A stretch of DNA of 64,000 nt from Curvularia clavata (lineage: Eukaryota): NCBI GenBank assembly GCA_023920165.1, contig CP089280.1:124001-188000 (forward strand). The letters are read 5' to 3'. The position numbers and the translations under genes are program-made. Below are positions 8,992 through 18,633 of this stretch, in pieces. The notes beneath the pieces were generated by a model. The model saw only the letters and a list, made by a program, of their open reading frames with translations. It did not search any database and was not told the DNA's origin. The stretch's first letter is position 1. Each line of letters opens with the position of its first letter.

Positions 8992-10305
8992 ATGAGCAGC
9001 TTCTGCGATGACAATCACACAGATTATACCGGTATTTGCTATTTAGCATGCACCGAGCAGTGCTCATGTTCTTCTTGTAGCCGCGAAGTTTCAACTCTCC
9101 GCCAGACCTGCTCTCAGTGCCATCCGTCTCAATTTTTCCCAACAACACAATGTCACAGAGAATTGGCATCAGTCCATTTTCAAATCCCTGATAACAACGT
9201 CCTTTTCGGCTCTGCACCTCAGCAGTTTCCTTGTCATCGGACAACCCATTTGCTTCAGTTGGATAATCTAGTTTGTCGGTGCGAAGGGCTAGAACACGAT
9301 ACATGGTCATTGATGCATCCGGAAGATTTCTCAAAAGATTTCAGCTTCTCGGCAGCGACTGAATTGTGGAATGTTACGTCCTCAGAGCTGGATCAACTCT
9401 TCTCCTCAGCTTCAGCGGATCAGCACCCATCGGAAACAAACCAGCCTATCGCTGCGTCCGTAGATTTGGATACCTGCAGCTGGAATGTGTCACCCGTTGA
9501 TCTGCTTTCTCTCGGAGACAACAATCAGTCCGGTTTTGCAACGCTTTTCCCTGAGCTCTCGAGATCTTTCAACGAGCCGACTCCTCAACTTGGTCCCGTT
9601 GAACCTCACGCCTCCACTGATGGTAGGAGAAATGAGCACGTAACAGAACGCTCTATCTTGTGCCCAGAAGAGTTGGAAGCATCGAATTTGGTCGAAACAT
9701 TTTGCACTATGGATGCGGAGTCGTCGATGTCCCTGTATCTCGCAACAGGGGGTCTGGATGCCAACAGCCAGACGATTTGGGACAACCATGTTTGCACTGC
9801 GGAATCTCCAGATACCACTTTACTTCTGAACAATCATTCGATGGCCGATCCCAGGCTGACATGTGCTGACTCTACAAGCTTGCTTACAACACCAGCAATG
9901 CCCAGTCAATGTACACCAGCGAATATGATTGCAAATATTCCTGTCGAGGCTGTCAGAGTATCAAGAACTGGACAAGACTCATATTTCCGAGCCTTGAAAT
10001 GCCCTTTTCCAAGCTGCACTTCAAAAACGCTGTTCATCCGTACCTGCGATCTAAACAAACATTATCGTCAGCATTTTAAGAGATTCTTTTGCCGAATCAA
10101 GGGCTGCCACATGTCGGAACAAGCTGCAACAGATGGAGGAAACCATGGGCTGTCTAGAGGCTTTGCTTTGAAGAAAGACCGAGCGCGACACGAAGCTTCA
10201 CATGATCCGTCTATCCGCTGCGAGGTCTGCGGAAAGGTCTTCAGTAGAGCTGATAACATGCAAAGTCATATGCAGAGGATACACAAGCGCTATTTTTCGA
10301 GTTAG
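8992..10305 (+). CDS. C2H2 zinc-finger transcription factor, candidate regulator of the adjacent peptide cluster
   Basis: Three C-terminal fingers: CPFPSC...DLNKHYRQH, CRIKGC...DRARHEASH and CEVCGKVFSRADNMQSHMQRIH; acidic/Ser-rich N-terminus; true start may be downstream. Confidence 0.8.
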   Translation: MSSFCDDNHTDYTGICYLACTEQCSCSSCSREVSTLRQTCSQCHPSQFFPTTQCHRELASVHFQIPDNNVLFGSAPQQFPCHRTTHLLQLDNLVCRCEGLEHDTWSLMHPEDFSKDFSFSAATELWNVTSSELDQLFSSASADQHPSETNQPIAASVDLDTCSWNVSPVDLLSLGDNNQSGFATLFPELSRSFNEPTPQLGPVEPHASTDGRRNEHVTERSILCPEELEASNLVETFCTMDAESSMSLYLATGGLDANSQTIWDNHVCTAESPDTTLLLNNHSMADPRLTCADSTSLLTTPAMPSQCTPANMIANIPVEAVRVSRTGQDSYFRALKCPFPSCTSKTLFIRTCDLNKHYRQHFKRFFCRIKGCHMSEQAATDGGNHGLSRGFALKKDRARHEASHDPSIRCEVCGKVFSRADNMQSHMQRIHKRYFSS

Positions 10306-12008
10306 TGGAACGTATTCGTAAGTAAATTGTCTGTTAGAAAAATACCAGGGCCATGTGCACCAATAAGTTCTTAGTGTCAACGCGGAACACAGCCGACATT
10401 GATAACCATGCTTCCAGTCCAAGAACAGCATAGATGAAGGGTACCCTGACGTTTCGACGCTAAAATGCCGAAACTATAAATTTCTCGCGGAATGGCGGGT
10501 GTCATCGATAGCCGTTGGCCTAGCGCCTGAGCTGCGGTACTTGCTTGACGGCAGCAGGGGATGGGTATGGCCGAAACAACCGGCAGTTGTGTCAGTCCTT
10601 GTACTTCATACCTCGGTAAGTATACGGTGTGATCCACGATACAACACGACTTCGATGCAGTGAAACCTGTACTATACTTATCTACCAGCGGTACGCTTTG
10701 CCACTCGATGTCAAATCGAGAAGGTTCTGTGGCACGGACTTCAATTTAACACCGCTCGTGAGGGGGGCAGTGTCAGAGAAGCTTTGGACTGATGCTGCAC
10801 CCAAGTATACGTGCGTCTTCCTCTCACAGCCGAGCATAGAAAGTACGTGCATGCACTCAAGGGTCCTAACTAAGAGAGAAATAGGCTCGGACGCTTTGTC
10901 CTCTAGGAAAATTGCCAGTACATTCGAACGCTAGTTCACACATTCAGATTTGCTCTTTGAGTCTATTCCTCTAATCCTGATGATCTCCTGTCGCCTAAAT
11001 CCCATATATTGGAGCTTTGCAACGTTCACGCTATCCTTGGAGTCAACAACAAGTTGCATCGTAACCTATATGCTGACTGCTTAAGCGAAAGAGGAGGCCG
11101 TTCGATCTTCTATAAAATGTCAATGCGTTTATACTTCGTATTCCTAGGGTACTGGAAGACTGTTTGGCTATCATGCCAACCCTGTATCCTCAGACAACCC
11201 GTCCGTTTATGATATAATTTCTACCGACCTCCGATGACTACGTATCTACCAGTGATCCAGAACAAGAGCTTGGCAGAGTCTCTGCAGCGCATCGACATGT
11301 CAGAATAAATTCTCACCCTTGTGGATGGTGTGTGACAGCACTGTGCAGGAACCTACTTGTAAAATGCAACCGTTTGAAGACAAGTCATATACATGGATGT
11401 AATCTAGAATCGACCGAGATGCTACACACTTATGACCATGAAATGTAACTTTCGCTCGTTCGGTCCGATAAGTTTTTGGAGCTACTCCTATCATCCTCAA
11501 AACTACCACGAGATCTCAAAACATATCCCTATCAGATGGCAATGACGAAGCCCTTGAAGGTCGGAGGTCGAGGAATGACGGTCCCTAGACTAGTGTGGGT
11601 CTATTGCTGAAGCGGAAGACCTCGCATGGTATGTTCATTAAATGTCACTTTGAAGCCGAGTGTCGTACATCAACCCACCCTACACGGCATGATCTTCGGC
11701 CTGCAAACTAAAGAGGGGTTTATATCCACAGACGGTGTCCGAAAGTCTGACTGTGATATAGAATATCGACTGGGAAGCGTCCGGGAAGAGCCTGAAAAGG
11801 CACGGATTCTGACAGCTACAAACTTTCATACTACTTTCCTGGTAGAATCCCAGAGTATTTACCAATCTATCCCTGAGACTTTAACCGCTTCTACTCCTCT
11901 CAACATACCAAAACCCCTCACACTGCATCCGAGTGAATCCGGCGAGAAATTGGCACGTAACAGACAGCAGAGGTTTGTAAAGTCACCAAATATCCTTGCA
12001 AGGCAAGA

Positions 12009-12014
12009 TATAAA
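12009..12014 (+). promoter_or_regulatory. Candidate TATA box of the peptide precursor gene
   Basis: TATAAA about 115 nt upstream of ATG 12124, followed by a C/A-rich leader. Confidence 0.45.
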
Positions 12015-16067: not shown

Positions 16068-17770
16068 GATAGCACAGAATGTATTGAAGAACGCCTTTGT
16101 GTTGTGATAGAAATCGTGTTCACTACGATTCTAGTCGGTGAGAGCAAGAGTGGGTGCAGTTATAAGTTAATTATTGGGAATTCTGGATCGTACGTGGCTT
16201 TGTTAGCAGAAGATTGGATTGCATCGGACCGAAGTGCAGCCGAAACATAGTATGATACGTATGAAGCCCAAGGTAGACCTGGCATGTTTTGTGAACCTAC
16301 ATACACGGCATGCAATGTACGTGCCAAAACCAAATGGGTAACATGCAAGCGGGACAGGATACTGGACGAGCAACCCGCAAGCTCCGCACGAATCAACACC
16401 CTACATATAAGCAATGATTCGTTTTTAACCTTTTTATTCTTTAACGAATAGACGGTTCTTTAGCTTACTGGTGCTGCATAGAGCCACAGTCAATCGTGTG
16501 AACAAGGTACAAGGGACGAACGGCGCAATTCTCTCAAATCACAAAGCGTAACAAGAACCACGGGCTAGCTACTACTTGGCAAAAGCCTGGTACTTGCATT
16601 TTAGCTCATATGCTTGCACCCTCAAGGTCTGATCATTTTCTCATTCTACGCAGTTAGATTGAGTGCCATGCTAGGCGTGGGTTGGATGTTTCAAATAGTT
16701 TAATAACGGCCCGATTGCTACGGCCAAAAGCGAGAATCGAGCTCGCCAAGGAATCGGCTGATAATAATAGCATGAAATCACATAGTACGAAAAGTACTAC
16801 GAAGGGACAGTGAGTTTGCTCGCAACTTGCTGACTTCGTCCATAAACTAATGATCAAAGCTGACGATAACTTCTAAGTACTAGATGTGAGCCGACACAGT
16901 TGGTCTAAAGCAGAAGACTTGAGAAAGAGATGCCGATTGCTTAACTTACGTGCCGAGATTAGTTAGTGTACTTGGAGACTCTTGATGAGACCGAAGCATC
17001 ACAGAAACATGCAGCAGCTTGCCGCCACCACTACTACATATTCTAGAAGTTTATTTGCATCTGCTGCAGTAAATTTAGCACGTGCCTCTGCTTTGGCCAC
17101 GAGTAACTCTGAGAACCAATCAACCAAAATCTGTTTGAAAAACATAGCCACCATCCGTTCAGCAGCACACTCAACCTCGGGACCTCGTCTCAAACCATGA
17201 TGATATTGATGAACAGATTCCCCCACGGTGGTAATTCGATCCGTTGCGGTCCTACTTCGATCCGGCCCGACCCTAACCTGATTTGTAACTATATCCTAGG
17301 CATGTATAACAGACACCCTTGTCAATTGTACCCTCTATAGACAGTGTGTAAGCTCGCCTGCATAGCTCGGTCGCCTAGAACTTTAAAACTGCTGCTCTTG
17401 ATGTTGATTACATATCGCTATCCTGGCCAGCGGGATGAACGTCCGTGTTACGGCTGGGTCACAGTGGGGTGCCAATGATGACAAGCGGATGGAAATCTCG
17501 AGTGACATGTATTCGGCATCTGGAAGAGCAATTTGCCGCTACTCCCGTAGATGCAAGGGTGATGGGAGTGATATGGGGGAGAATGCATCAGTCTCCAAAT
17601 GTCTTACTCTACACCGACTCTTGACGATTACACACGATTGGCACCAGAACTCAGGAATAGCCCACATCAACTACCAAGAAAAATTGGTGTGTTATTCATT
17701 CTGTCGAGAATTCTGAACATAATGGCACTGTTCTCGGGCATTGACTGATGTTTTTTTCCTCAAGACCTCC

Positions 17771-18633
17771 ATGGCGTCGGGGAGTCTTCCAGAAAGGCTC
17801 TCATACAGAATGAAACGACAATGGAGGAGAATTCCCGAAGAAGACGAAGAGGAAGGGGAAAAGGTAGGTACTGTTTCTACTTCATAGCCATTTGATGAAC
17901 CGTATGCGAAGAGTAACAAACTTCCCAGTCCCTCGAGTCCGAGCCTCGGAACAGGAAAACAGTCTTGTACATACTACTCTTTACGCCCATTTGTATTGCC
18001 ATTGGTGCTGTATCCTTGAAACTTCTATGTGGTATATTTTTCCCAGAGGATGCACCCTCAACAGCATCCGGAAAAATGGAAACCACCAAGATCTGGGAAG
18101 ATTGCGGCGGAACACCCGACGAAGCACGCCGTCGCAACTGCCACTTCGACATCCTATCTATGGCCTGGCAAACACACGAGTGCTTTGACCATGCCAACGA
18201 CGCTGCGTTTCTCGCCCATCATACAGACTTCAACGCATCTGACATACACTCGGATCATGCCCAAGATGCGGAACAAGAAGACAAGGAAGTTGTCACCACG
18301 GCATGGAAATTCTTCCTCGACGTGGAAGGCCAGCATGAGATTCCGCTGTCTGTTGCGCTAACTGGCGAACACCAGCTCTTCGTTAGCCAGGAATTTCATT
18401 TTACCCACTGCACATACATGTGGCGGCAGATGCATCGGGCGTACGCAAAGCTGGGGTATATAGATGCCCACTTGGCGAACTGGCGGCATACACTGCATTG
18501 TCAGAATGTGCTTTTGGCAGGAATGGGGGATAAAGATAGCCTTGGGGCGGTAGGTAAGGTGTTGTATCCTAAATGTATCAAGGTGGGAGATGGCTCGGGT
18601 GCGGCGGGGCTTGTACAGGCTGGGCCATATTGA
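17771..18633 (+). CDS. DUF3328/UstYa-like oxidase (fungal RiPP maturase)
   Basis: ATG 17771; intron 17864-17928 (GTAGGT...TAAC...CAG) joins in frame to ORF 17965; single TM helix, CGGTPDEARRRNCHFDILSMAW, and two HxxHC motifs (HFTHC, HTLHC). Confidence 0.82.

Follow-up and report, generated by a model that had tools for sequence, protein, structure and literature searches.

The locus described here lies in a 64,000-nt stretch of Curvularia clavata contig CP089280.1 (the window; coordinates below are positions in it unless another contig is named). It comprises a gene for a secreted repeat precursor, a gene for a membrane-anchored oxygenase of the prolyl 4-hydroxylase (P4H) type and a gene for a membrane protein with two HxxHC motifs (Table 1). 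Since the same three-gene layout is present in a distant fungus, we conclude that the locus probably specifies an undescribed pathway for a modified secreted peptide. On balance, we favor the view that all three genes serve one secretory pathway, in which the precursor would give rise to a disulfide-looped peptide, proline hydroxylation would be carried out by the P4H, and the HxxHC enzyme would be responsible for further oxidation. The initial annotation of this DNA had joined the same genes, together with a C2H2 zinc-finger gene as a regulator, into a single cluster for a dikaritin-type peptide of the RiPP class (ribosomally made, then modified after translation). The precursor, the P4H and the secretory targeting hold up, and the gene order in the second fungus speaks for a single pathway, while the assignment to DUF3328, the Kex2 sites expected of such a precursor and the link to the C2H2 gene do not hold up.

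Precursor, hydroxylase and gene order

To follow transcription of the locus, four public sequencing runs were aligned to positions 8500-19500. None of them is recorded as RNA; GT..AG joints in the contigs of runs X1, X2 and X4 were the sole reason for taking these runs as RNA-derived. In X2 and X4, which belong to two studies, the contigs contain a precursor transcript at 12062-12858 (+) and skip a 60-nt GT..AG intron in its 3' untranslated region (12581-12640). Contigs of the same two runs span 14931-16044 in the P4H gene and skip 15792-15849 (GT..AG, minus strand). Both genes are transcribed in the X2 and X4 samples; contig depths, which are unsuited to ranking genes, were 64-283 over the precursor and 3-7 over the P4H. 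The X2 and X4 contigs do not reach the HxxHC or the C2H2 gene and the X1 contigs do not reach the precursor, and these gaps carry no evidence. The precursor open reading frame (ORF) is missing from the protein database despite its assembled mRNA, and the public genome probably lacks an annotation for it.

The precursor gene contains a tandem array at 12208-12529 (+), with an 84-bp unit present in 3.8 copies (96% matches, Tandem Repeats Finder score 602). The encoded protein has four near-identical 28-aa units and hence four copies of the core, so that the secreted precursor with four tandem cores claimed in the initial annotation is indeed present, and is transcribed. Its signal peptide is followed by a pro-segment, in which there are five X-Pro/X-Ala dipeptides, and then by the core QCTNDPNNPGKGCHVPPLAR, present four times with the spacer EALPDPEP between cores. 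Residues 4-22 are hydrophobic and signal-peptide-like (mean Kyte-Doolittle value 2.24). After the likely signal-peptide cut the protein reads VP-FA-EP-MP-EP, then Gln, and the stretch preceding a core reads Arg, then EA-LP-DP-EP, then Gln. The X-Ala/X-Pro register is kept by all dipeptides of both segments (4/4 in the spacer and 5/5 in the pro-segment) and stops exactly at the Gln. Runs of XA/XP dipeptides are described, in the available part of PMC7329392, as Ste13 sites and as a signature of alpha-type pheromone precursors. An in-frame ATG upstream, at 11626, would yield a spurious 303-aa ORF over the precursor.

Within the core, the DNA of the four copies differs at five synonymous sites and, non-synonymously, at a single one, where copy 4 has Val instead of Gly. 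At this last site, position 12494, runs X2 and X4 have G in place of T and so encode Gly, which means that the four cores are identical in those strains. This pattern is compatible with selection acting on the peptide.

From this organization we infer the following course of processing and modification. The precursor would go into the endoplasmic reticulum (ER) via its signal peptide, and each of the four units would be cleaved after the lone Arg (between LAR and EA). The spacer EA-LP-DP-EP would then be trimmed dipeptide by dipeptide by a dipeptidyl aminopeptidase of the Ste13 type, as would the N-terminal VP-FA-EP-MP-EP, and trimming would expose an N-terminal Gln, able to cyclize to pyroglutamate. 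The predicted product is a peptide of 19-20 residues, QCTNDPNNPGKGCHVPPLA with or without a trailing Arg, which has a Cys-x10-Cys pair, expected to form a Cys2-Cys13 disulfide loop, and four prolines, one of them in an X-Pro-Gly context. In the lumen of the ER or Golgi, at least one of the four prolines would be hydroxylated by the anchored P4H; collagen P4Hs favor X-Pro-Gly. The dimeric double-HxxHC protein, which is probably a DUF3328-like copper oxidase, would add a second oxidative change, e.g., a hydroxylation or a cross-link.

The P4H gene consists of exon 1 (16067-15850) and exon 2 (15791-15239) on the minus strand, separated by an intron at 15849-15792, and the joint is seen in both X2 and X4. 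A search with the P4Hc/2OG-FeII_Oxy profiles, which had been suggested in the initial annotation, gave a match to Pfam 2OG-FeII_Oxy_3 well above the cut-off (40.7 bits versus 27). The nearest solved proteins, as revealed by a phmmer search of the PDB, are the Chlamydomonas P4H (2jig, 1e-16) and the catalytic domain of human P4HA2 (7zsc, 6.6e-15). The HWD, LHAG and TK segments align with HYD, LHGS and DK of 2jig, i.e., with the His-x-Asp...distal His iron triad and the Lys that binds 2-oxoglutarate (2OG). A hydrophobic anchor is formed by residues 14-32. The identification of the gene product as a P4H-type 2OG oxygenase is therefore solid, in line with the membrane-anchored P4H of the initial annotation, and prolyl hydroxylation is its predicted activity. 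An N-terminal hydrophobic segment is found in each of the three proteins, as anticipated by the proposal that all of them are routed to the secretory system.

A scan of metagenome contigs yielded 21 loci with members of the HxxHC family, just 8 of which have at least 1.6 kb of sequence upstream of the match. Co-conservation of the three genes, another check that had been suggested, was found in one of the 21 loci, L010, where the order and orientation of the precursor, P4H and HxxHC genes are identical to those in the window. The L010 and window proteins are 35% (HxxHC protein) and 31% (P4H) identical, and the two P4Hs have a WC.F.DC insertion and the catalytic residues in common. The L010 core peptide is unrelated to the window core; unrelated cores between lineages are usual for RiPP precursors. 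In a tree of 22 HxxHC-family sequences, the window protein and its L001 relative on the one hand, and the L010 and L009 proteins on the other, fall into different starred clades.

The double-HxxHC protein and its family

The HxxHC gene, which is divergent from the P4H gene as stated in the initial annotation, is composed of exon 1 (17771-17863), an intron (17864-17928, GT..AG) and exon 2 (17929-18633) on the plus strand. The spliced product is identical in every letter to a public 265-aa Curvularia clavata protein. Two HxxHC motifs are present, also as claimed earlier (HFTHC-x25-HTLHC, coded at 18397-18501 (+)), and constitute a putative metal site. The membrane helix covers residues 40-68, with a hydrophobic segment at 43-61 (Kyte-Doolittle value 2.41). 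In the AlphaFold2 model (mean predicted local distance difference test score, pLDDT, 80.5) the motifs are located on consecutive helices, 185-206 and 216-228.

A homodimer of residues 84-262 was predicted with a score of 0.79, versus 0.00 for the best control; at least 58% of contacts were common to three runs, and the partner pLDDT was at least 79. The predicted interface is formed by residues 189-204 and 214-229, i.e., by the motif helices. The mark used for homodimers was reached by 21/30 proteins solved as same-chain pairs and by 0/23 solved as single chains; on eukaryotes the corresponding numbers were 17/29 and 0/30, yet only 1/7 when there was no older solved relative. A similar arrangement is described, in the available part of PMC12435403, for the DUF3328 copper enzyme CctR, in which a membrane helix is present and the HxxHC(x)nHxxHC pair lies at the interface of a dimer built as a four-helix coiled coil. 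CctR and characterized DUF3328 enzymes thus have in common with the Curvularia protein the membrane helix, the HxxHC(x)nHxxHC pair on paired helices and the homodimer (predicted in our case) formed via them. The Curvularia protein differs by an extra conserved Cys-rich luminal segment at the N-terminus; its copper binding is putative, as is any homology to CctR at the level of sequence. Based on the model, the HxxHC protein probably operates in the manner of a DUF3328 enzyme, as a copper oxidase of that kind.

An exhaustive profile search with the HxxHC family, which has no Pfam model, revealed at least 1752 representative clusters (50% identity) at E<=1e-3, and 862 at E<=1e-10. A set of 149 members, made up of the window protein and 148 of the 150 best matches listed, was scanned further. 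Residues H188, H191, C192, H218, H221 and C222 are at least 90% conserved across this set, and the family also keeps the Cys-rich N-terminal luminal segment, CG..P.EAR..GC.FD. When placed in the Atlas, the window protein is found among unnamed ascomycete clusters; the first named neighbor, with 28% UstYa members, has a score of 0.85 and is a lead only. The sole match in a PDB sequence search with the family was a designed coiled coil that aligned to the membrane helix. When the model was compared with PDB folds, Foldseek found none at E<=0.001 and the best Z of a wide VIA-align search was 3.8, a result that does not prove the fold new.

The HxxHC family adjoins repeat precursors in another lineage as well. 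In L016, an ORF at 6833-7345 (-), ca. 2.7 kb from the HxxHC gene, encodes eight copies of PHDDTYYYL with the spacer R-[DE]-R-E-A-x-A; a signal peptide is not apparent in this precursor exon, and we take its Tyr-rich core to resemble asperipin-type cores. The start of an L016-type precursor is located at the contig edge of L018 (3-161, minus strand), whose HxxHC protein is identical to that of L016 (one sequence, assembled twice). In L007, the HxxHC-family gene (39-707, plus strand) lies ca. 1 kb away from a multi-exon bona fide UstYa gene (1639-2693, minus strand), an exon of which scores 52.9 bits. Comparison of the HxxHC family with the C-terminal UstYa exon of L007 by hhalign gave no match, this exon being mostly outside the common region. 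A possible precursor in L007 is an ORF at 4232-4815 (+), which has a signal peptide and a DAICAR motif; the motif is found a second time in a neighboring frame. In L009, an ORF for a major facilitator superfamily transporter is located downstream of the HxxHC-family gene. Repeats in L002 (536-765) and L004 (1-231) were considered as precursors and rejected, since their frames are broken or their period is not a multiple of three.

Evidence against a common pathway and alternative explanations

Several observations weigh against a pathway shared by the three genes, and the first of them concern the peptide, which is itself a prediction from sequence. There are no dibasic sites (KR, RR or KK) in the 137 aa of the precursor, and cleavage after a lone Arg has to be assumed. 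The core contains no Tyr, Trp or Phe, the usual UstYa cross-linking targets. With neither the Kex2 dibasic sites that define precursors of dikaritins and Kex2-processed repeat proteins (KEPs) nor an aromatic core residue, the dikaritin-type precursor of the initial annotation is not upheld.

A second set of observations concerns the HxxHC protein. Its match to Pfam UstYa (PF11807) has an E value of 0.49-0.77 and 10-10.6 bits, versus a cut-off of 25. The protein is therefore not a Pfam DUF3328 member, and the initial annotation, which had made its proposal depend on a DUF3328 match for this gene, is formally contradicted on this point. The cut-off was reached by 0/149 of the family members scanned (best E 6.6e-4). 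Weak UstYa matches were observed for 3/149 members at E<=0.01 and for 15/149 at E<=1, the next Pfam family having 4. The HxxHC family is probably a distant sister of DUF3328, the sequence homology of the two being putative, and the window protein is best described as belonging to a separate family that has no Pfam model and bears the hallmarks of DUF3328.

The last set comes from run X1, whose contigs over the HxxHC gene retain the sense intron. Between 17856 and 19360 these contigs carry two canonical introns of the minus strand, at 18417-18362 (GTATGT...CTAAC...CAG) and 19014-18493, which point to antisense transcription over the 3' half of this gene. A spliced sense transcript of this gene was not seen in the aligned runs, an absence that carries no weight. 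The antisense intron at 18417-18362 excises the stretch that, on the opposite strand, codes for the first HxxHC motif.

The three genes could be neighbors without a common pathway. The repeat protein would then be a stand-alone processed secreted precursor, i.e., a KEP-like signal or effector left unmodified by the neighboring gene products, and the P4H and HxxHC proteins would act elsewhere. We regard this explanation as unlikely, though it has to be taken seriously. A DUF3328 gene is missing from the vicinity of ca. 78% of KEP genes (PMC7329392, available part), and the Curvularia locus is bounded by housekeeping genes. Searches of the protein database for precursor homologues returned just two chance-level matches near the query length (E 4e-3 and 7e-3) and none at longer lengths, word-based search being weak for short repeats. 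A tblastn search with P4H exon 2 gave a match in 1/21 HxxHC-family loci, that of L010. L001, which at 65% identity is the closest relative and includes 10 kb of upstream sequence, has neither the P4H nor a repeat ORF, a further point in favor of unlinked genes. Its HxxHC-family gene (10223-10708) has HYTYC as the first motif and lies in 12 kb with very few ORFs; because of the broken motif and the scarcity of ORFs, the L001 locus may be decaying. Against the absence of a functional link stand the three-gene order and orientation, kept in L010 at 31-35% enzyme identity, and the repeat precursors that adjoin the HxxHC family in the lineage of L016 and L018.

It is improbable that the precursor remains uncut and serves as a small secreted or wall protein rich in proline, which the adjacent P4H would hydroxylate in the way of plant and algal hydroxyproline-rich glycoproteins. 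The Pro-rich precursor devoid of dibasic cleavage sites would fit such a role, as would the similarity of the P4H to 2jig, an algal wall-protein P4H. The exact X-Ala/X-Pro register ahead of each core and the identity of the cores point instead to discrete peptides, and the L010 and L016 counterparts carry KR or RxR sites between cores. Plant and algal type-II membrane P4Hs that act on secreted peptides, such as the hormones called C-terminally encoded peptides (CEPs; PMC5103176, available part), are alike in enzyme type and in the presumed small secreted substrate with Pro-Gly. The Curvularia P4H differs from them in being fungal and clustered with its presumed substrate gene, and in that the peptide is disulfide-looped.

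Yeast alpha-factor and ascomycete alpha-pheromone precursors, processed by Kex2, Kex1 and Ste13 (PMC7329392, available part), have a signal peptide, tandem cores and X-Ala/X-Pro runs ahead of the cores, as does the Curvularia precursor. The latter differs by a lone Arg in place of KR, by a longer core with a Cys-x10-Cys loop, and by the adjoining genes for tailoring enzymes. The missing KR site, the lack of a Pfam MF_alpha or MF_alpha_N match at E<=10 and the near absence of DUF3328-type genes next to pheromone genes (PMC7329392, available part) make it very improbable that the precursor is an alpha-factor-like mating pheromone precursor of Curvularia clavata, as could be suggested by its repeats with Ste13-type dipeptides and by its language-model neighbors, among them clusters named 'Pheromone 1' (0.83) and MF_alpha (0.78), whose scores below 0.9 make them leads only.

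Of known RiPP systems, the closest to the pathway we propose for the three genes are the dikaritin clusters (ustiloxin, asperipin-2a, phomopsin and victorin). In both cases, a secreted multi-core precursor is encoded beside an N-terminally anchored double-HxxHC protein, and the enzymes are conserved while the cores are hypervariable across lineages. Ascomycete pheromones, in turn, are usually shorter than the 19-20-residue core seen here, which also weighs against a pheromone. The Curvularia locus differs from the dikaritin clusters in having no Kex2 dibasic sites, no aromatic core residue and a P4H-type 2OG oxygenase as a partner, and its oxidase is below the Pfam UstYa threshold and belongs to a large family of its own. 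Acalitide (PMC10840396, available part) is likewise a fungal ribosomal peptide with stabilizing disulfide bridges; it differs by a single-core precursor, by head-to-tail cyclization by a peptidase and by the lack of oxidase partners.

Fungal RiPP mining relies on two filters (PMC7329392 and PMC12048977, available parts): there has to be a Pfam DUF3328 match, and a repeat precursor has to contain Kex2 (KR) sites. The Curvularia locus fails both, yet keeps the logic of a cluster, with a layout conserved in a distant fungus; since its precursor has no KR, RR or KK, it would be overlooked by Kex2-based mining. A broader proposal, which we make tentatively and consider possible rather than likely, is that the double-HxxHC family is a second class-defining family of fungal RiPP maturases, invisible to mining based on DUF3328 or Kex2. 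In Curvularia it would, together with a dedicated P4H, yield a pyroglutamyl, disulfide-looped, hydroxyproline-containing 19-20-mer from a KR-less precursor, the first fungal RiPP with P4H tailoring. No report of a P4H in a fungal RiPP pathway was found in the searchable literature (paywalled papers and supplements being outside its scope), and no description of the double-HxxHC family as a separate family was found, as judged by titles and abstracts (with paywalled papers outside the scope). If the proposal is true, ca. 1750 sequence clusters mark a hidden reservoir of peptide pathways, P4H enters the tailoring repertoire of fungal RiPPs, and a plant-associated fungus produces a hydroxyproline peptide of its own. 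The claim lends itself to a direct test, since exact masses can be given for the predicted product: the monoisotopic M is 1941.846 for the 19-mer with pyroglutamate and disulfide and 2097.947 for the 20-mer, each plus n x 15.995. The genus comprises cereal pathogens, and the Curvularia peptide contains N-P-G-K-G-C-H; CEPs end in S-Hyp-G-(I/V/A)-G-H (PMC5103176, available part). We nevertheless consider it extremely improbable that the peptide imitates plant hydroxyproline hormones such as CEPs.

Flanking genes and layout of the locus

The features of the window and of L010 are listed in Table 1. Scanning of the C2H2, precursor, P4H and HxxHC proteins against NCBIfam gave zero matches (4/4 scanned). 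The C2H2 gene of the initial annotation is a genuine ORF with a Pfam zf-C2H2 match; its tie to the cluster finds no counterpart in conserved linkage across the comparison loci, so the gene is treated here as a neighbor, and a role as cluster regulator is unsupported. Of the two boundaries drawn earlier, the MRM1-like SpoU gene was recovered, while the claudin-like gene corresponds to no more than a weak, sub-threshold L_HMGIC_fpl match.

Table 1. Features of the Curvularia clavata window and of the metagenomic locus L010 (3971 bp)
Locus	Feature	Position	Strand	Basis or remark
Window	SpoU methylase (MRM1-like)	7099-8662		flank, housekeeping gene
Window	C2H2 zinc-finger ORF, 437 aa	8992-10305	+	single Pfam zf-C2H2 match, 26.6 bits versus cut-off 25.2
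Window	repeat precursor coding sequence, 137 aa, one exon	12124-12537	+	
Window	P4H-type 2OG-Fe(II) oxygenase, membrane-anchored, 256 aa	15239-16067	-	Pfam, PDB phmmer, splice joint
Window	intergenic region between the divergent P4H and HxxHC genes, 1.7 kb	16068-17770		coordinates
Window	double-HxxHC type-II membrane protein, 265 aa, UstYa/DUF3328-like	17771-18633	+	sub-threshold in Pfam
Window	far flank, L_HMGIC_fpl match	20698-21231		weak, sub-threshold
L010	repeat peptide	ending at 131	+	two 21-aa units with KR sites, rest beyond contig edge
L010	P4H-like gene with N-terminal anchor	1767-789	-	
L010	HxxHC-family gene	2443-3186	+	
L010	ORF	3552-3971	-	no Pfam match

Between the precursor and the 3' end of the P4H gene there is a stretch of ca. 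2 kb (12860-14930) in which the largest ORF is at most 64 aa and to which no X1, X2 or X4 contigs align. Upstream of the MRM1-like gene, positions 1364-6247 (-) encode a Mit1-type chromatin remodeler with SNF2, chromo, PHD-like and zf-CCCH_6 domains.

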